A stretch of 64,000 nucleotides of DNA from a virus (lineage: Duplodnaviria; Caudoviricetes). Numbering within the stretch: position 1 is the first letter of the stretch; each line of letters starts with the position of its first letter. Location: IMG/VR virus record IMGVR_UViG_3300017912_002752, one strand, 5' to 3'. This document shows positions 12,362 through 64,000 of the stretch, one piece after another. The notes below the pieces were generated by a model. It was not told the DNA's origin. It was given only the letters and a program-made list of their open reading frames with translations, and searched no databases. The translations under genes and the position numbers were made by a program.

Positions 12362-12411
12362 TCTATAACTTCTTCTTTTTTATTTAACTATAAATATACA
12401 AAAAATATTTA

Positions 12412-22916: not shown

Positions 22917-23461
22917 AATAAATCACCAACTTCTAAACCAGATGGTACTTTATCCCATAAGTTGATTGCGATTGCTCTTCTTGTACCACGAGTAACTTTA
23001 GTAACTCGATGTGTATGTTCACCTGCAGGAAATATAACCAATCTATTGTATTTTGGTTCTAATCTTTCAGGTTCACCATGTTGCCCATGTGGATAAATTT
23101 CAAGGTAACCACCATCGATATCATTTTCCCATGGATAAAAAACAGTACCTATTACAGGTGTAACTATTTCTTTTGTTTGATTATACCAATACTCATCTTT
23201 ATCAAAATGAAATGGTAAATCATCTCTTTCTTCGGTTGATGAATAAACACCAATCCAATATTCAAACCCCTCAACATTTACTGATGGGTATGGTGAGTTT
23301 TCACCCCAAATATATTGTATCAATCTTTTTTTAATTGTATTTGCAGGTGAGTTCCACCAACCATCCCACCACATATAACCTTTGGTATCAAAGAAGGTCG
23401 TGTCATTCTTTAGGTCATTTAATAGTTGTTGGTCTTTTATGAAATCATCTATTACAATCAT
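22904..23461 (-). CDS. 2OG-Fe(II) oxygenase (prolyl-hydroxylase-like)
   Basis: FHFDKDE...GGYL...PKYNRLVIF...HRVT...RRAIAIN. Confidence 0.8.
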   Translation of the reverse strand: MIVIDDFIKDQQLLNDLKNDTTFFDTKGYMWWDGWWNSPANTIKKRLIQYIWGENSPYPSVNVEGFEYWIGVYSSTEERDDLPFHFDKDEYWYNQTKEIVTPVIGTVFYPWENDIDGGYLEIYPHGQHGEPERLEPKYNRLVIFPAGEHTHRVTKVTRGTRRAIAINLWDKVPSGLEVGDLFLEN

Positions 23462-24549
23462 AAGTCTTCTACTTTCTTTAGTGCCGATGCGATTACTTGG
23501 TGCATATCGTAATACTTGTATTCTGCTAATCTACCACCAAATATAACTTTATCTTGTGCATCAGCTAATTTTTTATACTTTTGATATATCTCGTTGTTAG
23601 TTTTATCATTTACAGGATAATATGGCTCTACTCCCCTTTCATAAGGTTGTGGATACTCCCAACTAACATAAGTTCCTTTTTGATTTTGATTATCAAAATG
23701 TTTATGCTCTATAACTCGTGTATATGGTGTTTCTGAGTCCGTATAATTCATTAATGCACATCCTTGATGATTATCTTTTGATTTATACATCTTACTCATC
23801 CAATGTAAAGACTTGTATTCCAAATCACCATACTTGTAGTCAAAATACAAATCAATCGGACCTGTATAAATTACTTTATCACCCAACCCATCCCAAAAAT
23901 CTTTTTTATCAAAATAATCTGTATTTGTAAATACTTCAACATCCTCTAATAATCTTTCAAATATCTGAGTGTATCCACCAATTGGTATTCCTTGATATTT
24001 GTCATTAAAATAATTGTTGTTATATGTGTATCTTACAGGCAGTCGTTTGATAATTGACTTTGGAAGTAACTTAGCTGGCTTCATCCATTGTTTTTGAGTA
24101 TAACCTTTTATTAACTTTTCGTAAATATCTTTACCAACAAGAGCCTCTGCTTGTTCTTCTAAGTTAGTAGGATTACCTTTAAATCTTTGTGACTCAATCT
24201 TTTGTTTTGCTCCTTCAGGTGTTGTCACTCTCCACATTTTATTGAATGTGTACATATTGAAAGGTAGTGGATATATTTCACCTTTATAGTTTGCAACTAT
24301 ATTAAGTTGAAACTGATGAAAGTCTACAAACTGATTTATCCAATGCCAAACCTTTTCATTATTTGTATGAAATATGTGTGGTCCATATTTGTGTACATGA
24401 ATACCTTCTATTTCTTCGGTATAACAATTACCACCAATGTGGTCTCGTTTTTCAATAACACAAACCTTTTTACCTTGTTCTTTAAGTTCATATGCACATA
24501 CTGCCCCAAAGAAACCTGAACCCACTATTACATAATCATATTTAGCCAT
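23458..24549 (-). CDS. glf: UDP-galactopyranose mutase
   Basis: GSGFFG, HIGGNCY, HKYGPHIFHT, YQGIP and GGRLAEYKYYDMHQ. Confidence 0.92.
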   Translation of the reverse strand: MAKYDYVIVGSGFFGAVCAYELKEQGKKVCVIEKRDHIGGNCYTEEIEGIHVHKYGPHIFHTNNEKVWHWINQFVDFHQFQLNIVANYKGEIYPLPFNMYTFNKMWRVTTPEGAKQKIESQRFKGNPTNLEEQAEALVGKDIYEKLIKGYTQKQWMKPAKLLPKSIIKRLPVRYTYNNNYFNDKYQGIPIGGYTQIFERLLEDVEVFTNTDYFDKKDFWDGLGDKVIYTGPIDLYFDYKYGDLEYKSLHWMSKMYKSKDNHQGCALMNYTDSETPYTRVIEHKHFDNQNQKGTYVSWEYPQPYERGVEPYYPVNDKTNNEIYQKYKKLADAQDKVIFGGRLAEYKYYDMHQVIASALKKVEDL

Positions 24550-25672
24550 CTATTCCTTTTAATGCGATTAAGTGTAATCTACTTGGTTCATCACTCGTAT
24601 CGGTATATGAGTGGTCTTCAATCAAAAATTGCCATTTTGGGAATGGATTTTTTCTGTTAACATCAACTAACATTTTTGTAGCTTGAAGCATTCTGTGATA
24701 ATCTTTGTTCTTTTCATGGATTTTCGCCAATAGTGTAAAGTTTTCATTTCTATCAGGACAAAACTCATGTGCTCTATTTAACCATTCTATTGCTTTTTCA
24801 GTTTCACCTATAAGTTCATATGCATTACCAATACCTAAACAACACCAATAAGTAAACTCATCACCTACTACATCTATTTTATTGAAAAATCTATATTCTG
24901 GATTTACAACATAGATATATTGCTTAAAGTAAAATATGCATCTTCGTACAAACTCTTTTCGGTGGTCTTCACCAAATGGAAAATCACTTCTAAGAGTATC
25001 ATAATAGGACTTTGCTATATAAAATAAGTGATATTTATCTTCTAATACCTTATTATTAGGTATTGTATCTAATTCTAAATTTAGTGCATCTTTTAGAAAC
25101 TTCATAGGTTGTAACCATGTCTGACCATCATTGGTTAAAATATGTCTAAACTTTTTATCTAAATTTACTCTTTGAAAAGTTTCTCCTATATCATCTCTAT
25201 CTAAGTAAATTGTTTCATGTGCTTTTTCAGGATAAAATCTCCAAGGTTCTTTAGCATTCCACAACCAAGTTCTGAAATACATTATACCAGGCCCTTGACA
25301 TGGTACATTCCAACTTTGTACTGATGTATCATTAAATACTGACCAATCAAAACCATCATCGACTTGTAATTGTTCGTCTGCATCAACTCTAAGAATCCAA
25401 TCACATCCGTGGTCTGCCTCTAATGCGGTTCTTACACAATGGTCTCGATTTATACCATGTCCCTTCCACCAATCTAATTGATATAGGAAACCAGGTATTC
25501 CCTTCTCGTTAAAAAAGTTTTTAATTATGTCTTGAGTTCCATCGGTTGAACCATTATCTTGAATAACCCAATAGTCAATGTATGGGTATACACTTTCCAA
25601 CATTCTCTCAATAACATGAGATTCGTTATTAACCATTGTGTTAAAACAAAACTTTGCAGTAGTGTTTTTCAT
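24542..25672 (-). CDS. GT2 glycosyltransferase with C-terminal TPR-like region
   Basis: MVNNESHVIERML, DNGSTDGT, RVDADE and AHE; helical C-terminus (FYIAKSYYD, AIEWL..A..PDRNE). Confidence 0.8.
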   Translation of the reverse strand: MKNTTAKFCFNTMVNNESHVIERMLESVYPYIDYWVIQDNGSTDGTQDIIKNFFNEKGIPGFLYQLDWWKGHGINRDHCVRTALEADHGCDWILRVDADEQLQVDDGFDWSVFNDTSVQSWNVPCQGPGIMYFRTWLWNAKEPWRFYPEKAHETIYLDRDDIGETFQRVNLDKKFRHILTNDGQTWLQPMKFLKDALNLELDTIPNNKVLEDKYHLFYIAKSYYDTLRSDFPFGEDHRKEFVRRCIFYFKQYIYVVNPEYRFFNKIDVVGDEFTYWCCLGIGNAYELIGETEKAIEWLNRAHEFCPDRNENFTLLAKIHEKNKDYHRMLQATKMLVDVNRKNPFPKWQFLIEDHSYTDTSDEPSRLHLIALKGIDG

Positions 25673-48633: not shown

Positions 48634-49122
48634 TTAGAATTGTAATATTGCGTAATCGTAAGTAAGTGTCATTTCTACGGTTGCTAAGTCTTCACCTGCG
48701 TAGTCCATATCTGAAAAGTTTGCAGATTGGATATATGCACCTTTTAGTGTCCACTCTTCTACTTTATCACCAACAGGACCCAAACTGTTGAATGTGATAT
48801 CTTTTTTATAGAAATCAGAGTATCCATCTCTACCTGTTACAGATTCGTGATGTAGTCTTACCCACTCCATTACTGCTTGTGCAGCGGAAGGTACGACTGG
48901 GTCGTATAAAGTGATTGCTAAATCTTGCCACTCAGAACGACCTTTTACATATCTTCTAACATTGATATGGTCGATGGTAACTTTACCATTGTTTATTTCT
49001 GGTCTGGCTGCTGTTTTCACCAAGTATGCAGGGATTCCTTCGATGTACATGATGAACCTATTTGACATTTTAGGTTCAAAGTTGGTGAACATTATTTCAT
49101 TTGGGTCTAATAATTGTGCCAT
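48634..49122 (-). CDS. Tail tube protein (gp19-like)
   Basis: FEPKMSNRF, WQDLAITLYDP, YKKDI..LGPVGDKVEEWTLKGA and LTYDYA. Confidence 0.9.
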   Translation of the reverse strand: MAQLLDPNEIMFTNFEPKMSNRFIMYIEGIPAYLVKTAARPEINNGKVTIDHINVRRYVKGRSEWQDLAITLYDPVVPSAAQAVMEWVRLHHESVTGRDGYSDFYKKDITFNSLGPVGDKVEEWTLKGAYIQSANFSDMDYAGEDLATVEMTLTYDYAILQF

Positions 49123-49170: not shown

Positions 49171-51570
49171 TTATTCAGGGAATGCTGCGCCTGTTGGTAG
49201 TACATTGAAATCAAGTACTATAAACTCTGCAGTTTTCGCTGGTTGAATAAAAATCTCTCCTTTTAAGATGTTTCTGTCAATAATATCTGGTGTATTGTTT
49301 GACTCATCCATGATTACTCGGAATGCGTAAAGACCTTGTCTTTGTTGAACTGACTCTAAGTAAGGATTAACTATACTTAAGAATCTGTTTCTTGTCGCTG
49401 CCGTGTTATTTTCGAACAATAGATATCTTGAAGATGATGCGATGAACTTCTTCAATGCTATTAACAATCTTCTTACATTGATTCTGTCAAGTGCTGATGG
49501 TCTAGCTTGGAGTGTTTTTTGTCCAAATACCGTTGCTCCTTGTCCAGGGAATGTTGCGATTGGGTTAATTCTATTTTCGTATAATGTATCTCTTTCATCG
49601 TGAGTTAATCTTGATTTAACTTCGATTACATTTGATAAACCACCTCTGTTAAGACCAGCTGGTGCGAACCATGGTTCTGCAACTGCGTCATTAAATGCGA
49701 TAACACCTGGCAATACAACACTTGGTGGTACCCAGACTGGCTTGTTCTTATCTACATCAAGGATTTTAACCCATGGGTGATAAGTACCAACATAATTCGA
49801 GTCAAATGAACTTAGTGAGTTAACTACTGTTGCGATTGAATCTTGATATGCTCCTGCGTCCATTACATAGAATGCGTCTTGTCTGTCTTCACACATATCT
49901 TTTGCAAATGTACTAACTGAAGAGTGTAGTCTATTGATTACACCTGGCGTTACCAATAAGTTCATATCATACTCATCAGGATTTGACACTGCGTTGATTG
50001 CTTTTCTGAAAGCGATTGTACCAGGAGCCGTAGCTGATGATAAATCTAATCCTTGCATATTACCTGCAACAATGTTTTGACCTGTAAGTACTGTTCTGTT
50101 TGGTGCGAATCCATCAAAACCACCTTGGAATGGTACTAAGAATTTCTTAGCATCTATAACAGAGTTTAATGTGATTGATGCTCCGTTAGAAGTACAATTA
50201 CTTAACAAGAACTTACTACCAACAGTTTCAGTATTTGAATCTGGCAGTGGGTTCAAGAAGTTTAAGTTATCAGTATTTGTAAAGTCAAAGTTATAACCTA
50301 AGAATGCTCTCTTGTTATACTCAGTACCAATAACTTGGTCAGTTACATATGATGGAGCTGGTAAATTGTGTCCACTATGTAAAGGTGAAGTTAATTTTGC
50401 AAATCCAAATGGTACAAGACTTGAATCAAGTGCACCTGCATCTAAATCAGTATCAACTTCTACTCTAATATGTGAAGATGCGTTTGGATAGTCACCATTA
50501 CTTGATACTTTTCCGTTTGCATCAACAGTAATGTATTTGTCACCGATTACCCTCTTAATATAGTTTGGTGAGTTAGGGTCTAAGTTTACACCACTAAACT
50601 CTTCTACGATGTTTGGTCTTAAATCAGAATCTTGAACTGTTTGTCCAAAAATTGAATTAGCAATCTTAGAAGTGTCTACTCTTCTTACTATTACTGAGAA
50701 TGTTCCGTATTCTGAACCTGGTACTTCATTTGCAGGTTTGATATCTCTAATACCTACTTTAAACTCATAGTTCGTAGATGTACCATGTGATAATGTATGG
50801 AACTTAAATAAGTTTTTAGTTACACCTGCGATATCTTGTGATATAATATAAGGAGTACTTGCTTCAGAGTATGCTTTTGTATAGTCAGTCTTTCTCATTG
50901 TATCGACTTCAACATCACAATTAGCGTCAGCTGAGAACGAAGAAGATTGGAAAGTCTTAAAGTTCATGTATAAGAAACCAAATTCCGAACCATTTTTAGG
51001 AGATGAACCAAATGTTTTTCCGATATAATTAGTGGCAGTTGGGTTCAATGATGCGGTTGGTATAGCTAATACTGCTGATTCTGATAATCCTGTAATTGCA
51101 CCATTACCTTTTAGGTAAAGTGCGAAGTTAGACGCCGATACTTCAGTTGTTGGGTTGTCATATGACCCACTTATGTTAGTAACTTTTGAAATATTGAAGG
51201 AACCTGTTGAGTTCGCAACACTACCAAATGGTACTTTTGTAGTAGGATGAATTACTGCTGCTACTGAACCACTAATTTTTAAAACTAAAGGTTCAACTGT
51301 GTAACCACTCTGTCCTAATACTCTAACGATAGTTGCAGTTCCTGCGTCTTCTAAATATGATTGTGCAGTATATGGTAAATATGAATCTTGTGTCAATCCA
51401 CCAAATATCTGCGTAAATTCTTCGAAGGACTCTACTTTTGTCGGTACGAATGCAGGTCCTTTTATACTTTGTCCAATTAGAGCTGCACCTATTTCACCGA
51501 TACCTTGAGGTAAAAACGATAGGTCTTTTTCTCTTGTGAATACACCTGGACTAACAATTCTTTCTGCCAT
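49171..51570 (-). CDS. Tail sheath protein (gp18-like)
   Basis: SPGVFTRE, PWFAPAGLNRG, INPIATF, GQKTLQ and DRINVRRLL. Confidence 0.95.
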   Translation of the reverse strand: MAERIVSPGVFTREKDLSFLPQGIGEIGAALIGQSIKGPAFVPTKVESFEEFTQIFGGLTQDSYLPYTAQSYLEDAGTATIVRVLGQSGYTVEPLVLKISGSVAAVIHPTTKVPFGSVANSTGSFNISKVTNISGSYDNPTTEVSASNFALYLKGNGAITGLSESAVLAIPTASLNPTATNYIGKTFGSSPKNGSEFGFLYMNFKTFQSSSFSADANCDVEVDTMRKTDYTKAYSEASTPYIISQDIAGVTKNLFKFHTLSHGTSTNYEFKVGIRDIKPANEVPGSEYGTFSVIVRRVDTSKIANSIFGQTVQDSDLRPNIVEEFSGVNLDPNSPNYIKRVIGDKYITVDANGKVSSNGDYPNASSHIRVEVDTDLDAGALDSSLVPFGFAKLTSPLHSGHNLPAPSYVTDQVIGTEYNKRAFLGYNFDFTNTDNLNFLNPLPDSNTETVGSKFLLSNCTSNGASITLNSVIDAKKFLVPFQGGFDGFAPNRTVLTGQNIVAGNMQGLDLSSATAPGTIAFRKAINAVSNPDEYDMNLLVTPGVINRLHSSVSTFAKDMCEDRQDAFYVMDAGAYQDSIATVVNSLSSFDSNYVGTYHPWVKILDVDKNKPVWVPPSVVLPGVIAFNDAVAEPWFAPAGLNRGGLSNVIEVKSRLTHDERDTLYENRINPIATFPGQGATVFGQKTLQARPSALDRINVRRLLIALKKFIASSSRYLLFENNTAATRNRFLSIVNPYLESVQQRQGLYAFRVIMDESNNTPDIIDRNILKGEIFIQPAKTAEFIVLDFNVLPTGAAFPE

Positions 51571-51640
51571 TATTTTCTCCTAAATTAAATCTTTGGGTTT
51601 ACCTTTATATAAATACCTCAAAAATTTCGAAAACGAATAC

Positions 51641-51922: not shown

Positions 51923-51966
51923 AACTCTAAAATTTATTGTTTACTACTAATATAAATATGGAAAAA

Positions 51967-54520: not shown

Positions 54521-54528
54521 TATAAATA
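54521..54528 (-). promoter_or_regulatory. Putative late-promoter motif TATTTATA (upstream of the neck gene)
   Basis: Same octamer at 12389, 33766, 36843, 47011, 51608, 51951 and 58223, each time intergenic and just upstream of a start codon. Confidence 0.6.
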
Positions 54529-54537
54529 TGGAAATAA

Positions 54538-56301
54538 TTAGCTTTCCCTATTTTCCATAAACGAAACTACAATATAACGAGTACCTTTTGTTGTAGCCCT
54601 TGCGCCGTGCTTATGTGTTATATTGCCAGGGTGTAATGTTGCGTAACCGATTGGACCTTTTACTAACTTCTTTTGTCTTCTAAACCAAGTACCACCACCC
54701 TCGTACTCGTCTAAGTCTGATAATTGTATCAAACAAGTAATATCAGCTTTATCATGATGTATAGAAAGATGTCCTTGTGCATCTGGTTTATATTTAGCTA
54801 AAAAGTTTTCAGAACTCATATCATCCCAACCCTTACCTTCTAACGCCCATAAATATATGCTAAGTTGCATAACATACTCTTTTAGTACATCATTATATAT
54901 TTCATCCATACCGATTGCGGTCAATAACATATCTGTTGTTGGATAGTTTTCGTGTCTATCAACAGTCCATGCATTTGAGTGTTCTGCCTCTTCTCTAATT
55001 TTTTTACAAAACTCCTCTGTAAATAGTGGGAATGTAAAACAACTATCAAAAGGTTCGTCTACTATCAAGTCCCATTCTTTTGTTCTTGCTGAATATGTTA
55101 TAAATTTATTTGTCCATTCTTGTTTATTATCCCAATATGAGTATAAATCGGAATGTAATCTTTCACCTTCTTTTGGTTCTACATCCATTAGTAATGTTTT
55201 TTGAAGTTCTGTTAATTCATTATTTGTAGAAGAATCGTTTATCATATCCATCCATTCATTATATCTTACACTCCAATTTTGTTCTCTTGCAAACTTTTCT
55301 GACTTATCTAAGTTTACTATACTGTTTTGTTCTCTATCAGCTTCAAATGCGTATGCAGCTACTATTGTTTCTCTCATCAATCCCACATCTACATTAGAGT
55401 TTACGACTATGGATTTATTATTTAGTAATTTTTTTAAATTACCTGTATCGGTTGATATTATTTTAACTCTACCCATCATCATTTCAAGTGCAGTTATACA
55501 ATATGTTTCATCATATTGTGATGGATAAATCCAATACTCAGATGATTTTATTTGTCTGTATAAATCACTTGGGCTTAAAGAACCTAAAAATCTTACATCT
55601 AAATCTTCGATGTTAGGGTAATCTTTTTTAATTCTGTCTAAATCACTCCAATCATCTGTATATGGTGGTTGTGCCACCCATAATGTTAATTTAGGATTTA
55701 TTTTCTTTAAGTCATCCCATATATTAAATAAATTCCATAGACCTCTATCTGGTCCTGATGTGTAAATTACTTTGTGTTTAAATTTTTCTTGTTTGATACT
55801 ATCAAATAAGTCTACATTTACGGCATTACCTATTACCTTTATCTTATCACCTTCGATATTATACTTTTCATATAACTTACCTCGTTGCCAATCCGATACT
55901 GCTACTATATTTGTTAGTTTTGGGTGTTTAAGATAGTCTAATCCGTTATTTGGTAATACACCACCATTGTACCACGGATAAAATTCTAAGTTATGTATCC
56001 AAAAGTATGATTTATCAAATGTAATATTTTTTTCTTCTAAATGTTTGAAATAGTGTATATAATTAGATGCGATTACAACATCAAAGTGTTGATTATTTTG
56101 AAGACTTGTGTAATCAACATACTTTACTTGATTGTATGTTTCAGAATCTAATTCACCTGTAACAAATACATCGTGTCCGTTTTTTGAAAACTCTTCTGCA
56201 AGATGTATTATACAATACTCTGAACCACCCACACCATTTTTTATCCAATTTGTTTTATTGAATGGTTTATTTTGATAACCTACTGTAAATAATATTTTCA
56301 T
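54538..56301 (-). CDS. GT4-like glycosyltransferase fused to a PLOD-type (procollagen lysyl hydroxylase-like) 2OG-Fe(II) dioxygenase
   Basis: N-part: GGSE, YTSGPDRGL, YPSQYDETYCITALE (GT-B). C-part: FPLFTEEFC..IREEAEH...PTTD...KYKPDAQGHLSIHHD...YEGGG...HPGNITHKHG...TTKGTRYIVVSF. Confidence 0.85.
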   Translation of the reverse strand: MKILFTVGYQNKPFNKTNWIKNGVGGSEYCIIHLAEEFSKNGHDVFVTGELDSETYNQVKYVDYTSLQNNQHFDVVIASNYIHYFKHLEEKNITFDKSYFWIHNLEFYPWYNGGVLPNNGLDYLKHPKLTNIVAVSDWQRGKLYEKYNIEGDKIKVIGNAVNVDLFDSIKQEKFKHKVIYTSGPDRGLWNLFNIWDDLKKINPKLTLWVAQPPYTDDWSDLDRIKKDYPNIEDLDVRFLGSLSPSDLYRQIKSSEYWIYPSQYDETYCITALEMMMGRVKIISTDTGNLKKLLNNKSIVVNSNVDVGLMRETIVAAYAFEADREQNSIVNLDKSEKFAREQNWSVRYNEWMDMINDSSTNNELTELQKTLLMDVEPKEGERLHSDLYSYWDNKQEWTNKFITYSARTKEWDLIVDEPFDSCFTFPLFTEEFCKKIREEAEHSNAWTVDRHENYPTTDMLLTAIGMDEIYNDVLKEYVMQLSIYLWALEGKGWDDMSSENFLAKYKPDAQGHLSIHHDKADITCLIQLSDLDEYEGGGTWFRRQKKLVKGPIGYATLHPGNITHKHGARATTKGTRYIVVSFMENRES

Positions 56302-56303
56302 AC

Positions 56304-57596
56304 TTAATCTATTATGTAATTTACAAATCCTTCGTTTTCGTAATATTTTGTTCCATTTCTATAACCAATTTCTTTTATAGAGTGTCCTGCATCATCATCC
56401 CACATCCAATCTTCTTTTCCAAGTTCTTCAAATCTTTCTTTGATTTGAAAATCATAATGGTCTCTAATTAATCTTGCTCTTCGATTAATATCTACTCTAT
56501 TGTTATCAACAGTAGAATCACCATTATTATATTGTACATATAACATTTTTCTAACATGAATAAATTTAGTTTCTAAAAATGTTTTAATAATCAGTTCGAA
56601 ATCATCTGCTACTGATATGTTTCTACTATGACCCCTTATCTTATGATAAGTATCTCTATTCCAAACTCTACAATGATTTGGCATACCTATATTAAATCTA
56701 ATTGTTTTTGGATTTATTTCAGGATAATGATGAACTAACCATCTCTTACCATCTATTTGTTTCCAAGTATGTCCTGCGTATGCAAAAACAAACATATTTT
56801 CAGGATGACCATACCAATCATCACCAATATAACCATATTGTCTTGGTGAATTATCTTTGTTAATTTCGGTTACATCTGTATAAATAAACCCTGCATCAGG
56901 ATATTTTTTAGATGCATTCAGTACATCTTCTAAACAAGTTGAGATTAACCAATCGTCATGGTCCAATTCAAATAACCACTCACCATCACATAACATAGCT
57001 GCTCTATGTTTTGCTTCACCAACATTACCACCTGAATTTGGTTGGATTCTATATATTTTTACTCTATCATCTAAACTTGCTATATGATTTAACATTTGCC
57101 AAGTTAAATTATGGTCTTCTGGTGAATCGTCTACAACAACCCACTCCCAATTTTGATATGTTTGTTCAACTAAGGATTTGTATGTTCTAAAAATTCTTTT
57201 TTCTGTTTTATATGTTGGTGTAAATATAGATAAAATGGGATTATCTTTATTACCATAAATTTCTTTTTGAGATTTACACGCCCAAAATGTAGATTGACAA
57301 ACAATTATGTTAGCTATAACATTATCATCAAATATCTCATCTCTTTGAACTATTTTAGACGATACATCAGTTCTTTTGGATAATTCTTTTAAATTCTCAG
57401 GAATTTCACCAAATACTAAAATAATATCAGGTTTGTGCTTAGAAAGATGTACTTTTACATTTTTATCTGTACGATATGAATGTATAACTACCTTTTCGAT
57501 TAAGTTTTCTTCCCAATAAACATCGGATTCTAACTCATACCTTCCAAATCTATTCCATCCATAAACTAATGCGGTTGGTAAACTTGTTTTTCGCAT
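56304..57596 (-). CDS. Glycosyltransferase family 2
   Basis: SIFTPTYK, WEWVVVDDS, ELDHDD and ADDFEL; ATG at 57596 preferred. Confidence 0.85.
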   Translation of the reverse strand: MRKTSLPTALVYGWNRFGRYELESDVYWEENLIEKVVIHSYRTDKNVKVHLSKHKPDIILVFGEIPENLKELSKRTDVSSKIVQRDEIFDDNVIANIIVCQSTFWACKSQKEIYGNKDNPILSIFTPTYKTEKRIFRTYKSLVEQTYQNWEWVVVDDSPEDHNLTWQMLNHIASLDDRVKIYRIQPNSGGNVGEAKHRAAMLCDGEWLFELDHDDWLISTCLEDVLNASKKYPDAGFIYTDVTEINKDNSPRQYGYIGDDWYGHPENMFVFAYAGHTWKQIDGKRWLVHHYPEINPKTIRFNIGMPNHCRVWNRDTYHKIRGHSRNISVADDFELIIKTFLETKFIHVRKMLYVQYNNGDSTVDNNRVDINRRARLIRDHYDFQIKERFEELGKEDWMWDDDAGHSIKEIGYRNGTKYYENEGFVNYIID

Positions 57597-57600
57597 ACTA

Positions 57601-58203
57601 CTACCTATATGGTTCACCACCTACCCAAAGAACGAAAGACTTTCTTACACCCTTTGTTACAGGAGTTACTCTATGTAAATAAAATGAAGGAAATATAATT
57701 GCAGCTCCTTGTTCTCTGTGTGCTACTATTTCTTTTCCAATATTAAATTCTAAATCACCACCTTCATACTCATCTGAATCTGAAAGTTGTACTGTTACTG
57801 ATATTTTTCGTTGATTCTGTATCTCTATACCACAATCCATATGCCAGTCATATCCACCTTCTTGTGTTCCATAATATTCTGTATATTGAATTTGTTCATT
57901 CATAGCAGATAAATCAAACTTCCACATTGAATCATTTGCGGATTTTATAAAATCATGTAGTTTTCCATACACCCATGCCCATTCTTCATTTTGTGGACAC
58001 CACTTTATTCTTGATTTTCTGTAATCGTCTTTTTTGGATTGTTCACCTTCACCTACTTTAGCATCTTGAAAAGGAAGTTTATTTGTCATTTCCTCAATAG
58101 TTTTCAACTCTTGTCTGCTAAATGCGTTTTTGAACCAATAGTAATCGTTGAAGTTTACATTTTCTCGATAGGAATCTCTATCAAATCTAAAACCTGCTCT
58201 CAT
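57601..58203 (-). CDS. 2OG-Fe(II) hydroxylase (prolyl-4-hydroxylase/PKHD-like)
   Basis: YDWHMD...RKISVTVQL..YEGGDL...FPSFYLHRVTPVTKGVRKS. Confidence 0.85.
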   Translation of the reverse strand: MRAGFRFDRDSYRENVNFNDYYWFKNAFSRQELKTIEEMTNKLPFQDAKVGEGEQSKKDDYRKSRIKWCPQNEEWAWVYGKLHDFIKSANDSMWKFDLSAMNEQIQYTEYYGTQEGGYDWHMDCGIEIQNQRKISVTVQLSDSDEYEGGDLEFNIGKEIVAHREQGAAIIFPSFYLHRVTPVTKGVRKSFVLWVGGEPYR

Positions 58204-58222
58204 AACTTTTATTTTGTTTTAT

Positions 58223-58230
58223 TATAAATA
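58223..58230 (-). promoter_or_regulatory. Putative late-promoter motif TATTTATA heading the hydroxylase/GT cassette
   Basis: Octamer 19 nt upstream of the ATG at 58203. Confidence 0.6.
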
Positions 58231-58241
58231 TTAAAAATTAA

Positions 58242-61200
58242 TTAGTAAAAGCTACCACTTACGATAGACCTTACTATATAAACATCATCACCACTTTGCC
58301 ATCCATTTGGTTTAAATGTTAATTTACCACCAGTTACCTCAAAGTAACCACTACCTGCTATTAAAGTTCCTTGTGCTCCTATACCACCTTTGTTACCTGC
58401 ATTTCCAGTTATACCTTTATTACCTTGATTACCTTTTGGGCCTGTTGAACCGCTTGGTGCATCTGAACCATCTGCACCTTGAGCACCTTGTCCACCTGTG
58501 TTACCTTTTGAACCTTTATCACCTGCAGCGCCTGTGTTACCTTTTGAACCTTTATCACCTGCAGCGCCTGTTGCACCTGTGTTACCTTTTGAACCTTTAT
58601 TTCCGGCATCGCCTGTTACACCCGTGTTACCTTTAGCTCCCGTAGCTCCACTTGGTGCATCACTTGCATCAGCACCCGTTGCACCTTGTCTACCCGTTGC
58701 ACCAGTTGAACCCTTAGCACCTGCGTTACCTTTATTACCTTTTGAACCTTTAGCACCTGCATCGCCTGTTGCACCTGTATTACCTTTTGAACCTTTTGCA
58801 CCTGCGAGGCCCGTTGCACCTTGGTCACCTTGTGGACCTGTTTGACCACTTGGTGCATCACTTGCATCAGCACCTTGAGCACCTTGTCTACCTGTTGCGC
58901 CTGTTGAACCTTTATTACCTGCGGCGCCTGTGTTTCCTTTTAAACCTTTAGCACCCGCGTTACCTTGAAGACCTGTTGCACCTTGAGCACCTTGGTTACC
59001 TGCAGCACCTTGAGCACCTGTTGCACCTTGAGCACCTGTTGCACCACTTGGAGCATCACCTGCTTCATCGCCGGTTGCACCTTGTCTACCTGTTGCGCCT
59101 GTTGAACCTTTATTACCTGCGGCGCCTGTGTTTCCTTTTGCACCCTTGTTTCCTGCATCGCCTGTTCCACCTGTGTTTCCTTTAGCACCTTTAGCACCTG
59201 CCGAACCTTGAGCACCTTGTGGACCTTGGTCACCTTGTGGACCTGTTGCACCGCTTGGTGCATCTGAACCATCTGCACCTTGAGCACCTTGAGAACCTTT
59301 TCTACCTAAGTTTCCTTTAGAACCTTTAGCACCTGCAACACCTGTATTACCTTGTGTACCTTGTCTACCACCTGCACCTGTCGAACCTTTAGCACCTGCA
59401 TTACCTTGTGGACCTGTTGCACCCTTTTGTCCTTTATCACCAGTTTGACCACTTGGAGCATCGCCGGGTGCTGATGCACCTTGAGCACCTTGGTTACCTT
59501 TTGAACCTTGTCTACCACCTGCGCCTGTTGAACCTTTATTACCTGCTGCACCTTGAGCACCTACTTCACCATCCCTACCTAAATTTCCTTTAGAACCTTT
59601 AGCACCTGCGAGGCCTGTATTTCCTTTTACACCTTGGTTACCTGTATTTCCTTTTGCACCTTTAGCACCTGCGAGGCCGGTTGCACCTGTTGAACCTTGG
59701 TTACCCGTATTTCCTTTTGCACCTTTAGCACCTGCGAGGCCTGTATTTCCTTTTGCACCTTGTCTACCTGTGTTACCTGTTGAACCTTTATTACCTGCGG
59801 CGCCTGTGTTTCCTTTTTGTCCTTTTTGACCCGTATCCCCACTTGGTGCGTCGCCTGGTGCTGATGCCCCTTGAGCACCTTGAACACCTTGTCCACCTGT
59901 GTTACCTTTCGAACCTTTAGCACCTGCGAGGCCTGTATTTCCTTTTGCACCTTGTCTACCACCTGCGCCTGTTGAACCTTTAGCACCTGCGAGGCCTGTA
60001 TTTCCTTTTACACCTTGGTTACCTGTATTTCCTTTTGCACCCTTATTTCCTGCATCGCCTGTTGTACCTTTAGTACCTTTTAGACCAGTTGCGCCTGTAT
60101 TACCTTTTGCACCTTTAGCACCTGCGAGGCCGGTTGCACCTGTTGAACCTTGTCTACCTAAATTTCCTTTAGAACCTTTTGCACCTGCGAGGCCCGTTGC
60201 ACCTGGGTCACCTTGCTCACCATCTACGCCTGTATTACCTTTTGCACCTTTAGCACCTGCGATGCCTGTATTACCTTTTAGACCAGTTGCGCCTGTATTA
60301 CCCTTTGCACCTTTAGCACCTGCTCTACCTTCTGCACCCGTTGGACTTAAACCTGTTGCACCTTTAGCACCTTTAGCACCTGCGAGGCCGGTTGCACCTG
60401 TTGGGCCTGTTGCACCTTGTCTACCTGTGTTACCTTTTGAACCCTTTTTACCTGCGAGGCCTGTTGCGCCTGTTGGACTTGCACCTTGAGCACCTTGGTT
60501 ACCTTTTGCACCTGCGAGGCCGGTTGCGCCTGTTGGGCCCTGTATACCTTGTCTACCTGTTGCACCTTTACCACCTTTAGCACCTGCGAGGCCTGTTGCA
60601 CCTTTGGGACTTGAACCTGTTCGGCCTGTATTACCTTTTGAACCTTTTGCACCTGCAGCACCTGCGGGACTTGCACCTGTTCGGCCTGTTCGGCCTGTAT
60701 TACCTTTTGCACCTTTAGCACCTGCAGCACCTGCGGGACTTGAACCTGTTCGGCCTGTTGCGCCTGTTGCACCAGTTGAACCCTTAGCACCTGCTGCACC
60801 GCCGGGACTTGCACCTGTTCGGCCTGTTCGGCCTGTTGCACCCGTTGAACCTTTTGCACCTGCTGCACCTTTGGGACTTGAACCTGTTCGGCCTGTGTTA
60901 CCTTTTTGACCTTTATTTCCTGAAGCCCCTTTTTGGCCAGTTCGACCTGTGTTACCTTTTGCACCTTTATTACCTGCGGCGCCTGTATTACCTTTAGCAC
61001 CTTTAGCACCTGGTGCACCCGCTGGACCTTGATTTCCTTGAGCACCTTGAGCACCTTGAGCACCAGCTGGTGATGGACCTTGAGAACCTTGAGGACCACT
61101 AAATCCTTGTGCACCAGAAGGACCCCTAGCACCTTTTTGTCCTTTTATACCTTTAGCACCTGTTGAAGAGTCTGAATCACCACACGCGCTACAACTTGAA

Positions 61201-62033
61201 TACCAAGTGTAATTACTTGTATCAAGACATAAGGAAGTCCCATCTGGAATACTTTCATTTACACTACCAAAATTCCAACAAACACTACCAATTAGAGCTA
61301 CATTGTTTGGAACAAAATTTTCAAATGCAAAAGAAGCGGGTCCGTATCCACTACATCTTGGTACATTATTATATTGAACTGAACAATCTTCGTCACCATT
61401 AAGGAAGTTGTGTACTACGAACCTATTTACCATGAATAGGTCAGATTCTTCTACATCAAAACTTCTAACTGGAAACATTCCATAAACTGGCTCGTCTTCA
61501 TTTGTTTCTTCAACACCATTAGTAATTGGTACATATTCAAATGTTTGATTGTCTTCTTTTAATCTTACTAAATGATGGTTTAAAGAATCATCTTCATTTC
61601 CCCACTCAATACCATCTAATTGTTCAAAGTAAACATAATATCCATCTGAATAAGTTCCACCACCATCTTCCCAATTGTAAACTGGCATATTGGTAACTTT
61701 TTGAGCTACCATTATATATTCATCTTCACAAGTACTTAATGAACCTGATGGCGTCTCTAATGTATATACTGTTTTAAAAAGTCGTGTACCTGTTGGTCCA
61801 ACATCTTTAATAACCTCGTTTTCGTTTAATTGAAGAAATGAAAAGTCAGGATTATTTGATACATTAACAAAGCTACCTGTCCAATTTAAAGGTATATCGT
61901 TGTTTTCCGTGTACGGATTACCATTGATACTAATACCTACAATAGAAGAACCTGTTTGAAGTGTACCTATTTCGGCAGTAGAACCTGATAGATTTAATAA
62001 AGTATGTTGAGATTTTAAGAAACCACCTATCAT
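58242..62033 (-). CDS. Collagen-like fibre protein with an N-terminal Hint-like domain and a Cys-rich linker
   Basis: About 930 aa of interrupted Gly-X-Y rich in GAK/GNK/GSK/GQK; N-terminal domain ends FDVEESDLFMVNRFVVHN. Confidence 0.9.
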   Translation of the reverse strand: MIGGFLKSQHTLLNLSGSTAEIGTLQTGSSIVGISINGNPYTENNDIPLNWTGSFVNVSNNPDFSFLQLNENEVIKDVGPTGTRLFKTVYTLETPSGSLSTCEDEYIMVAQKVTNMPVYNWEDGGGTYSDGYYVYFEQLDGIEWGNEDDSLNHHLVRLKEDNQTFEYVPITNGVEETNEDEPVYGMFPVRSFDVEESDLFMVNRFVVHNFLNGDEDCSVQYNNVPRCSGYGPASFAFENFVPNNVALIGSVCWNFGSVNESIPDGTSLCLDTSNYTWYSSCSACGDSDSSTGAKGIKGQKGARGPSGAQGFSGPQGSQGPSPAGAQGAQGAQGNQGPAGAPGAKGAKGNTGAAGNKGAKGNTGRTGQKGASGNKGQKGNTGRTGSSPKGAAGAKGSTGATGRTGRTGASPGGAAGAKGSTGATGATGRTGSSPAGAAGAKGAKGNTGRTGRTGASPAGAAGAKGSKGNTGRTGSSPKGATGLAGAKGGKGATGRQGIQGPTGATGLAGAKGNQGAQGASPTGATGLAGKKGSKGNTGRQGATGPTGATGLAGAKGAKGATGLSPTGAEGRAGAKGAKGNTGATGLKGNTGIAGAKGAKGNTGVDGEQGDPGATGLAGAKGSKGNLGRQGSTGATGLAGAKGAKGNTGATGLKGTKGTTGDAGNKGAKGNTGNQGVKGNTGLAGAKGSTGAGGRQGAKGNTGLAGAKGSKGNTGGQGVQGAQGASAPGDAPSGDTGQKGQKGNTGAAGNKGSTGNTGRQGAKGNTGLAGAKGAKGNTGNQGSTGATGLAGAKGAKGNTGNQGVKGNTGLAGAKGSKGNLGRDGEVGAQGAAGNKGSTGAGGRQGSKGNQGAQGASAPGDAPSGQTGDKGQKGATGPQGNAGAKGSTGAGGRQGTQGNTGVAGAKGSKGNLGRKGSQGAQGADGSDAPSGATGPQGDQGPQGAQGSAGAKGAKGNTGGTGDAGNKGAKGNTGAAGNKGSTGATGRQGATGDEAGDAPSGATGAQGATGAQGAAGNQGAQGATGLQGNAGAKGLKGNTGAAGNKGSTGATGRQGAQGADASDAPSGQTGPQGDQGATGLAGAKGSKGNTGATGDAGAKGSKGNKGNAGAKGSTGATGRQGATGADASDAPSGATGAKGNTGVTGDAGNKGSKGNTGATGAAGDKGSKGNTGAAGDKGSKGNTGGQGAQGADGSDAPSGSTGPKGNQGNKGITGNAGNKGGIGAQGTLIAGSGYFEVTGGKLTFKPNGWQSGDDVYIVRSIVSGSFY

Positions 62034-62052
62034 TGTAACCTTTTATTTTTTC

Positions 62053-64000
62053 TTAAGAAGAACCACTTGTGTACATCAATACAACAAATTTTGTACTTCC
62101 ACTCGTAAATGTTAATAATCCGTCTGTTGCCGAGTATGCAAATCCACCACTTGGACCAATTTCAGGACCGCCTATTACTGTTCCTAATGCATTTGCACCT
62201 TTTTGACCTTTAGAACCGGCAGCACCTTGTGCGCCTGTTGCTCCTTGATTTCCTTGAGCACCTGTAGCTCCTTGAGCACCTTGAATTGTTCCACCCGTTG
62301 CACCTTGAGCACCTTGAGCACCTTGGTCACCTTTTGGACTAGCTCCTTGAGCACCTTGGTCACCTTTAGGACTTGCACCTTGTGCACCTTGAGCACCTGT
62401 ATCACCTTTTGGACTGGCACCTTGAGCACCCGTTGCCCCTTGAGCACCTTTTGCCCCTTGAGCACCTTGAATTGTACCACCTTGAGCACCTTGAGGTCCT
62501 TGAGCTCCTTGAGCACCTTGAGGACTTGCACCTTGAGCACCTTGGTCACCTTTAGGACTTGCACCTTGTGCACCTTGAGCACCTGTATCACCTTTTGGAC
62601 TAGCACCTTGAGCACCCGTTGAACCTTTTGCACCTTTTGCCCCTTGAGCACCTTGAATTGTTCCACCTTGAGCACCTTGAGGTCCTTGAGCTCCTTGAGC
62701 TCCTTGAGGACTTGCACCTTGAGCACCTGTATCACCTTTAGGACTTGAACCTTTTGCACCCGTTGCACCTTGAGCACCTTGAGGACTTGCACCTTGAGCA
62801 CCTTGTGGACCTGTTGCACCTTTTGCACCTTGAGAACCTTGGACTGTACCACCTTGAGCACCTTGAGGTCCTTGTGCACCTTGAGCACCTTGAGGACTTG
62901 CACCTTGAGCACCTTGGTCACCTTTAGGACTTGCACCTTGAGCACCTTGAGCACCTGTATCACCTTTTGGACTTGCACCTTGTGCACCCGTTGAACCTTT
63001 TGCACCTTTTGCACCTGTAGCACCTTGTGCACCTTGTACAGTTCCACCCGTTGCACCTTGAGCACCTTGTGGACCTTGTGCACCTTGAGAACCTTTTGGA
63101 CTAGCACCTTGTGCACCTTGTGCACCTTGAGGTCCTTGAGCACCCTGAGCACCTTGAGGACTTGCACCTTGAGAACCCGTTGCTCCTTGAGCACCTTGTG
63201 GACCTTTTGCACCTTGAGAACCTTGTATATTTGAACCTGCAGCACCTTGAGCACCCGTTGAACCTTGTGGACCTTGAGCACCTTGAGCACCTTGAGGACT
63301 TGAACCTTGAGCCCCTTGTTCACCTTGTGGACCTTGAGAACCTTGAGCACCTTGAGGACTTGAACCTTGAGCCCCTTGAGACCCTTTTGGTCCTTGAGCA
63401 CCTGTATCACCTTTAGGACTTGCACCTTGAGCACCTTGAGCTCCTTGTGGACCTTGTGCACCTGTATCACCTTTTGGACTAGCACCTTGTGCACCTTGAG
63501 ACCCTTTTGGTCCTTGTGCACCTTGAGCACCTTGAGGACTTGCACCTTGAGCACCTTGATTACCCGTTGAACCTTTTGCACCTTGAGAACCTTGTATATT
63601 TGAACCTGCAGCACCTTGAGCTCCTTGTGGACCTTGTGCACCTGTATCACCTTTTGGACTAGCACCTTGAGCACCTTGAGCACCTACTTCACCTTGAGCA
63701 CCTTGAGCACCTTGAGGACTTGAACCTTGAGCGCCTTGAGACCCTTTTGGTCCTTGAGCACCTGTATCACCTTTAGGACTTGCACCTTGAGCACCTTGGT
63801 CACCTTGGTTACCCTGCGGTCCTTGTGCACCTTGGTCACCTTTTGGACTGGCACCTTGAGCACCTTGAGCACCTTGAGGTCCTTGAGCACCTTGAGACCC
63901 TTTTGGACTGGCACCTTGAGCACCTTGAGCACCTACTTCACCTTGTGGACCTTGAGCACCTTGGTCACCTTTAGGACTTGAACCTTGTGCACCTTGAGCA
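62053..64000 (-). CDS. Collagen-like fibre protein (5' end outside the window)
   Basis: Not in the ORF track because it has no start in the window. The frame is open from 64000 to TAA at 62055-62053: (GAQ)n with GASP(K/Q) interruptions, ending [31 protein letters not shown]. Confidence 0.9.

Follow-up and report, generated by a model that had tools for sequence, protein, structure and literature searches.

A cluster of five adjacent genes in an uncultured, T4-like marine myovirus combines two collagen-like fibre genes with a lysyl hydroxylase (LH) of the type that modifies animal collagen. The genes lie at one end of a stretch of 64,000 nucleotides (nt) from IMG/VR virus record IMGVR_UViG_3300017912_002752, referred to as the window. 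The five genes are proposed to form a fibre-maturation cassette; the LH domain would hydroxylate fibre lysines, glycosyltransferases (GTs) would glycosylate the hydroxylysine, and a small 2-oxoglutarate (2OG)/Fe(II) oxygenase would add a second hydroxylation. The probability of this reading is put at roughly 0.6. The order of genes given in the original prediction (an earlier reading of the bare sequence), with two collagens, a 2OG oxygenase, a GT2 and a GT-LH fusion placed before a neck gene, was confirmed. In the direction of transcription, the relevant features are as follows (lengths in amino acids, aa).

62053..63999, minus strand: collagen-like fibre gene 1; at least 648 aa, with its 5′ end beyond the window; non-collagen tail of ~45 aa
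58242..62033, minus strand: collagen-like fibre gene 2; 1263 aa; Pfam Collagen (PF01391), E 1e-112 over 9 stretches
58223..58230, minus strand: promoter-like motif TATTTATA; extended context ATTTTT-N3-ATATTTATA; 20 nt before the oxygenase gene
57601..58203, minus strand: 2OG-Fe(II) oxygenase; 200 aa; PF13640, E 7e-14; phrog_61, 4e-37
56304..57620, minus strand: GT2; 438 aa; catalytic domain aa 131-248, flanked by N- and C-terminal extensions
54538-56301, minus strand: fusion protein GT4-LH; 587 aa
55234..56301, minus strand: GT4 domain of the fusion, aa 1-356; PF13439 (33.1 bits) and PF00534 (29.7 bits), both above cut-offs
54541..55173, minus strand: PLOD-type LH domain of the fusion, aa 377-587, assigned by profile, fold and catalytic residues
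53339..54502, minus strand: neck/head-tail adaptor gene; phrog_211, phrog_23 and phrog_4542; downstream boundary of the cassette

The lysyl hydroxylase domain

The fusion protein consists of a GT4 domain and an LH domain, connected by a linker (aa 360-378) that is disordered in the AlphaFold model. The PLOD motifs on which the original prediction relied (FPLFTEEFC, PTTD, HHD, YEGGG, HPGNITHKHG and GTRYIVVSF) are all found in the C-terminal part. The profile and structure searches that it had called for have now been run on these ~200 residues, and LH3 and L230 are by far the best matches of the profile. In phmmer searches, the domain matches human LH3 with an E-value of 1.3e-31 and the LH domain of mimivirus L230 with 2.3e-22. 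A profile built from 24 homologues extends these values to 3e-50 (LH3) and 3e-49 (L230); the next solved family, the prolyl 4-hydroxylase (P4H) of Bacillus anthracis, follows at 2e-6. The AlphaFold2 model of the domain has a mean confidence (pLDDT) of 89.7 and superimposes in Foldseek on the LH domain of L230 (6ax6_B) with a template-modelling (TM) score of 0.89 and a root-mean-square deviation of 1.8 Å over 207 columns. Neither profile nor fold thus groups the domain with a non-PLOD dioxygenase family, an outcome that would have refuted the original prediction.

The catalytic centre is intact. The Fe triad H515/D517/H565 aligns with H825/D827/H877 of L230 and H667/D669/H719 of LH3, and is invariant in three homologue alignments. 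Y504 (11 residues before H515) and R575 (10 residues after H565) correspond to Y814 and R887 of L230, which bind the C5-carboxylate of 2OG, and are likewise invariant. In L230, the three Fe ligands and both 2OG binders are essential, as determined by mutation (PMC5802723). All LH catalytic residues are also unchanged in 48 full-length homologues, the most distant of which share 24% identity. L230 forms a tail-to-tail dimer that a conserved leucine, L873, locks by sitting in an aromatic pocket; the counterpart of this leucine, by sequence position alone (four residues before the His ligand), is Ile561, and this position is hydrophobic (I/L/V/F) in all homologues. The sequence, the catalytic residues and the modelled fold all place the C-terminal domain firmly within the collagen lysyl hydroxylase family, and it is very probably an active PLOD-family dioxygenase.

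Fibre proteins and the placement of lysine

Judged by their long Gly-X-Y runs, both fibre proteins are collagen triple-helix repeat proteins, with 277 (gene 2) and 137 (gene 1) triplets in runs of three or more. The product of gene 2 begins with a non-collagen domain (aa 1-291); its collagenous region covers aa 292-1222 (nt 58368-61160), and a further 41 aa make up the C-terminal tail. The protein matches PHROG tail-fibre families.

Lysine is almost confined to the Y position, which is where the X-Lys-Gly sequon of collagen LHs has its lysine. In gene 2, it occupies Y in 84 of the 277 triplets (30%) and X once; in gene 1, the numbers are 14 and 0. The dozens of X-Lys-Gly sites reported earlier are therefore real and strongly position-biased, at 98 Lys at Y versus 1 at X for both collagens together. 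The bias is also clade-wide: across 9005 triplets from relatives, Lys makes up 28.4% of Y but 0.9% of X positions. Bacterial collagens, by comparison, typically have Thr at Y (PMC8968730). Judged by the sheath, Microcystis phage Mel-JY01 (54% identity) comes nearest among cultured phages, followed by Flavobacterium phages (~51%). Mel-JY01 has no LH by tblastn, and its collagen-like open reading frame (ORF) contains 0 Lys in 164 triplets. Proline is distributed differently from lysine. It is found at Y in 2 of 277 triplets of gene 2 and 0 of 137 of gene 1 (2/414 overall), and is common at X and in regular G-A/S-S-P-K/Q-G and D-A-P-S-G interruptions.

Several further properties of the fibre genes were observed. 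In the upstream collagen, the G-A/S-S-P-K/Q-G interruption is strictly periodic, with four residues between glycines, and occurs 37-49 times per protein in relatives (L003, L031, L036); the downstream collagen has D-A-P-S-G-type breaks instead. Both collagens end in short non-collagen tails (~40 aa; 58245-58367 and 62056-62190, minus strand) of similar, β-rich sequence, including GYFEVTGGKLTFKPNGW; they are possible domains for trimerisation or registration, similar to a foldon. The length of the gene 2 collagen differs between near-identical phages, with 1263 aa in the window versus 1270 and 1333 aa in two relatives (L001, L030) whose flanks are 99% identical. Metagenome contigs also break or mis-join within collagen repeats. 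Either the fibre length is polymorphic, or the collagen repeats are badly assembled.

Two glycosyltransferases of different mechanism

The transferase part of the fusion, whose family the original prediction did not specify, is by sequence and predicted fold a retaining GT4 enzyme with a GT-B fold. Foldseek relates it to PimA, MshA and BshA (TM 0.6-0.74 on target), and the two glutamates of its EX7E motif, E265 and E273, do not vary among 12 orthologues. The PLOD-type GT-A domain (GT_PLOD, PF25342) was looked for in the fusion by Pfam and gave no match; PLOD-like representatives do contain PF25342. The idea of a GT-lysyl hydroxylase fusion thus stands as far as the fused transferase and LH domain are concerned, but the architecture is not that of LH3 or L230. 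Since the transferase is a retaining GT4 of GT-B fold, the fusion arose independently of these two proteins.

The second transferase is assigned as an inverting GT-A glycosyltransferase of family GT2 (PF00535, E 4e-19, 69.5 bits versus a cut-off of 23.3). Its best matches in the PDB are the GT2 domains of chondroitin and heparosan synthases (3.5e-14), and a DxD motif can be read from the single sequence within ...ELDHDDW.... Alignments with relatives all begin at residue 9-11, so that the ATG at 57596 is the more likely start. GT2 is kept in the cassette at 62-98% identity.

The small oxygenase

The 200-aa oxygenase is predicted to belong to the PHD/PKHD (P4Hc) fold class. Its HxD...H...R residues (H121/D123/H177/R187) are invariant in 28 homologues. 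In profile searches of the PDB, PKHD/PiuC-type hydroxylases are matched at 3e-10, and P4Hs at 0.07-0.12. The AlphaFold2 model (pLDDT 82.7) resembles PHD2 and Pseudomonas PPHD in Foldseek (TM ~0.7). The closest relatives by sequence and model are therefore PKHD/PiuC and PHD2/PPHD. These proteins (PiuC/YbiX, Sbal_3634; PHD2/PPHD) share the double-stranded β-helix fold and the HxD...H...R signature with the phage enzyme; they differ in that identity is low (16-21%) and in that the phage gene lies beside collagen fibres. A literature search on the function of PiuC found nothing.

The description of this enzyme as a ‘prolyl-type hydroxylase’ is fair as a label for the fold class, but does not hold in the sense of a collagen P4H. 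That role was considered and rejected, given the P4H profile scores and the near absence of Pro at Y. Classical collagen prolyl 4-hydroxylation is unlikely because, with Pro at Y in so few triplets, it would have next to no substrate.

Conservation of the cassette

The cassette recurs in four diverging phage lineages, in which collagen, oxygenase and LH/GT genes are found together while the remaining structural genes diverge or differ. The synteny check suggested with the original prediction is thus largely positive.

Window clade (38 IMG/VR loci; fusion 63-99% identical): collagen(s)-oxygenase-GT2-GT4/LH-neck...sheath, wherever the contig reaches
Sister clade (L052-L061; sheath ~70% identical): same order; fusion with an added GT25 domain (GT4-GT25-LH)
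Divergent clade (L063-L069; 587-aa sheath, 32-54% identity): collagen-oxygenase-[GT4-GT25-LH]-sheath; no GT2 or neck gene between
Split lineage (L078-L080): Lys-at-Y collagens-oxygenase-GT4; GT25-LH follows as a gene of its own

In the split lineage, no homologue of the window phage's neck or sheath genes was detectable nearby. The minimal conserved set is thus collagen, small oxygenase, LH, GT4 and one inverting GT-A transferase, either GT2 or GT25. In the CAZy scheme, the galactosyltransferases that act on animal collagen (on hydroxylysine) belong to GT25; GT2 and GT25 enzymes are inverting, and GT4 enzymes are retaining.

The wider LH family

A search of 1.84 billion representative proteins with the LH domain returned 2056 proteins at E ≤0.001, of which 89 fall at ≤1e-30. 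The architectures include GT4-LH, GT4-GT25-LH, GT25-LH, standalone LH, GT_PLOD-LH (the animal type) and GT25-GT_PLOD-LH. Metagenomic proteins P0131 and P0137 add two more, GT25-LH-TPR and DUF6445-LH, the latter with a second putative oxygenase domain. Scans of viral contigs with three standalone or GT25-LH representatives (P0127, P0154, P0152) gave no matches. Seawater metagenomes of nine studies contain the family, which is spread over hundreds of protein clusters.

A quick tree, which is unrooted, unites the PLOD-type architectures in a single supported clade. The window's LH domain lies in a separate microbial/phage radiation, inside a GT4-LH group with 99% support that also holds bacterial orthologues and some GT25-bearing forms. 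The presence of the latter inside the GT4-LH group indicates that the GT25 module was gained or lost repeatedly.

Full-length GT4-LH orthologues (40-46% identity) occur in five bacterial genomes, namely those of a Chromatiales symbiont of Bugula, two Granulosicoccaceae, a Rhodobacteraceae metagenome-assembled genome, and an Aliishimia chromosome. The possibility that these are prophage genes was rejected, as their neighbours are housekeeping genes. Some collagen ORFs elsewhere in these genomes are very rich in Lys at Y, reaching 41% in Aliishimia. The ORF of the Aliishimia chromosome (L044, ~1.497 Mb) is at least 667 aa long and lies ~1.3 Mb away from the GT4-LH orthologue.

Proposed mode of action

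The two collagen-like genes would encode virion fibres; they are located just upstream of the neck genes, at the position of the fibritin and short-fibre genes in T4. In the host cytoplasm during infection, and before the triple helix zips up, the LH domain would hydroxylate the Y-position lysine of Gly-X-Lys-Gly in a reaction that depends on Fe(II), 2-oxoglutarate and O2. That the domain acts on the neighbouring collagen fibres is considered probable.

A first, β-linked sugar would then be attached to hydroxylysine by the inverting GT-A enzyme, which is GT2 in the window phage and a GT25 domain of the COLGALT family in sister lineages. The fused, retaining GT4 would add a second sugar in α-linkage, in parallel to the animal pathway, where Gal-β-Hyl (Hyl, hydroxylysine) is followed by Glc-α1,2-Gal. 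This two-step scheme is drawn by analogy from the inverting mechanism of GT2 and GT25, the retaining mechanism of GT4, and the membership of the animal enzymes in GT25. The recurrent fusion of LH with GT25 and GT4 argues that the transferases act on the product of the hydroxylase. Overall, the chance that they glycosylate the resulting hydroxylysine is about even. The PHD/PiuC-like oxygenase may carry out a second hydroxylation of the same fibres, with X-position prolines and the Ser-Pro/Ala-Pro interruption sites as candidate targets.

Weighing the alternatives

What the analysis shows is which genes are present, that the LH domain belongs to its family and has intact catalytic residues, that lysine is biased towards the Y position, and that the genes stay linked; the substrate used, the succession of the reactions, the sugars, and a part played by the modification in stability, shielding or receptor binding are inferred. 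Several observations weigh against this scheme. The donor and acceptor of the GT4 domain cannot be read from its sequence. Thr is as common as Lys at the Y position of gene 2 (87 versus 84). Cyanophages and pelagiphages frequently carry homologues of the small oxygenase (phrog_61). The phage synteny comes mostly from one related group of myoviruses and is thus partly inherited gene order. Occurrence of the enzymes apart from collagen genes in relatives, which the original prediction had named as a refutation, is seen in part: no collagen, GT4 or small oxygenase was found within 8-10 kb in a phage lineage with a standalone 232-aa LH (L081-L084; fragmentary contigs), and none of the five bacterial genomes has a collagen ORF within 10 kb of its GT4-LH orthologue. 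Four of these five genomes contain collagen-like ORFs elsewhere, as do 4 of 14 controls, which is not clearly above the control rate.

The abundance of Thr leads to one alternative, in which the LH domain still hydroxylates fibre lysines and the transferases act on Y-position Thr, on Ser/Thr of the interruptions or on another acceptor, leaving hydroxylysine for helix hydration or cross-linking. The GT2 and GT4 families are both broad, with a large range of acceptors. Collagen regions of the type found in Bacillus BclA are glycosylated on Thr (PMC8968730). This arrangement is nevertheless rather unlikely. GT4 and/or GT25 are repeatedly fused to LH, and enzymes on one polypeptide usually catalyse consecutive steps; GT25 is the family that galactosylates hydroxylysine in animals; and a lysyl oxidase-like gene was not seen in the window.

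The enzymes could also be host-directed auxiliary genes, with hydroxylases that target proteins of the host or further proteins of the phage, for instance translation factors (PPHD acts in this way on EF-Tu), transferases that remodel the host envelope or its glycans, and a merely inherited adjacency to collagen. The solitary bacterial orthologues in housekeeping contexts, the standalone phage LH genes, the likeness of the small oxygenase to PHD2, PPHD and PiuC together with its frequency in cyanophages and pelagiphages, and an upstream motif that is not restricted to structural genes (see below) would all fit. This is judged unlikely, as the LH domain scores 40 orders of magnitude better against collagen LHs than against all other oxygenases of solved structure, and the cassette sits within the structural module, between fibre and neck genes, and stays with Lys-at-Y collagens while its other neighbours change. 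That the LH/GT enzymes are inactive or vestigial in the window phage is a formal possibility with nothing specific in its favour. It is very improbable, given catalytic residues that are invariant in 48 full-length homologues, a confidently predicted fold, and retention of the gene in lineages whose sheath identity falls to 32-54%. Modification of the fibres by their own cassette is therefore preferred.

Comparison with known systems

Mimivirus L230, a collagen LH and hydroxylysine glucosyltransferase, is the closest precedent. Its C-terminal LH domain belongs to the same family as that of the phage (30% identity, with identical Fe and 2OG ligands). The LH of L230 is fused to a glycosyltransferase, and mimivirus also encodes collagen-like proteins, the presumed substrates (PMC5802723). 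There are three differences. L230 has PLOD-type GT-A domains (L230-like representatives are GT25 + GT_PLOD + LH), whereas the phage fusion has GT4 with a GT-B fold; the phage host is a bacterium, so that the chemistry would run in a prokaryotic cytoplasm; and the phage LH domain falls outside the PLOD/L230 clade in the tree.

Human LH3 (PLOD3) and the GT25 enzyme COLGALT1 offer a second comparison. The LH domains are homologous, and the proposed logic of hydroxylase, inverting GT-A enzyme and retaining transferase is alike; sister phage lineages even fuse GT25, the family of COLGALT1, to LH. Unlike the animal system, the phage has no PLOD GT-A domain, accessory domain or endoplasmic reticulum; GT2 would replace GT25, and GT4 the glucosyltransferase domain of LH3.

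Among prokaryotes, the known examples come from B. anthracis, where BclA is a collagen-like protein that is modified, and P4H a 2OG hydroxylase of the collagen type (PMC8968730). BclA differs in that it is glycosylated on Thr, and Lys hydroxylation is not known there; the P4H differs in its poor match to the LH profile, and is not the closest relative of the small oxygenase. Prokaryotic collagen-like proteins have been described as essentially unmodified (PMC8968730). Bacterial dioxygenases of the β-hydroxylase/PhyH type have been predicted to modify collagen-like and tail-collar proteins, with no PLOD-type phage enzymes described (Iyer et al. 2010).

Full-text literature searches returned collagen lysine hydroxylation and glycosylation in viruses for mimivirus only, and turned up no publication on a lysyl hydroxylase from a bacteriophage. 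In the usual view, animal collagen is distinguished by hydroxylysine and its glycosides, and mimivirus counts as the sole viral case. What appears to be new here is collagen lysine hydroxylation and glycosylation encoded by a phage, with an independently assembled GT4 partner (with or without GT25 or GT2). A broader proposal, advanced tentatively, is that the collagen-like fibres of tailed phages that infect marine and fresh-water bacteria carry glycosylated hydroxylysine, made in the bacterial cytoplasm by a pathway that was assembled independently of animals from an LH domain, an inverting GT2 or GT25 and a retaining GT4, with the PHD/PiuC-like oxygenase for a second hydroxylation, and that the microbial/phage LH radiation (>2000 representatives at 50% identity) is the source pool of eukaryotic PLOD enzymes.

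If the proposed function is correct, hydroxylysine chemistry extends to bacterial cells and is a widespread trait of the ocean virome. Compact, bacterially compatible LH/transferase enzymes would then be available for making modified recombinant collagen in E. coli, and there would be a handle on the stabilisation of phage fibres, their shielding from proteases or the tuning of receptor recognition. It would also bear on the origin of the animal PLOD and COLGALT enzymes.

The upstream motif

The original prediction placed the oxygenase-GT2-fusion trio behind the same motif as the structural genes. On the coding strand, TATTTATA is indeed found 20-35 nt upstream of the oxygenase, neck (54521-54528), gp15-like and sheath (51608-51615) genes, and also at 51951. 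As a plain 8-mer, it occurs 14 times in the window versus 9.3 expected, which is not above chance; it stands out solely by its strand, its position and its extended context. The extended form, ATTTTT-N3-4-ATATTTATA, occurs on the minus strand at 12389, 33766, 36843, 47011, 51608, 51951, 54521 and 58223, before structural as well as replication-region genes. The shared motif is thus upheld for the oxygenase, neck and sheath genes, but it is not specific to virion genes. The extended motif is a candidate phage promoter that differs in orientation from the T4 late TATAAATA, and its placement would fit a joint expression of the enzyme trio with the virion genes.

The source phage and the remainder of the window

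The window has a G+C content of 33%, and all its genes are on the minus strand. It encodes replication genes (DNA polymerase, UvsX, DnaB-type helicase, ribonucleotide reductase) and virion genes for baseplate hub, tail tube, tail sheath, neck/adaptor proteins and a gp15-like protein. Beyond the cassette and its neck gene, the following structural genes are relevant.

After the neck gene, minus strand: gp14-like and gp15-like genes; the gp15-like gene has a weak Pfam match to T4 gp15
49171-51570, minus strand: tail sheath
48634-49122, minus strand: tail tube

Megablast of the cassette against INPHARED gave 0 matches, and no close relative was found among deposited phage genomes; tblastn gave partial, distant matches and no full-length fusion. 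DNA of the window is present in seawater and marine metagenomes of nine studies. Contigs from RNA libraries match parts of the cassette at 97-99% identity; DNA carry-over is possible in these libraries, and transcription cannot be deduced from such contigs.

A UDP-galactopyranose mutase gene (Glf; PF03275, E 1e-74) adjoins a further GT2 gene with C-terminal TPR repeats elsewhere in the window (23458-25672, minus strand). Given the Glf gene, the phage may make UDP-galactofuranose, and the GT2-TPR protein gives it a fourth transferase, with a protein-binding module. The pair could supply the donor for fibre glycosylation, or could serve in the remodelling of host glycans.

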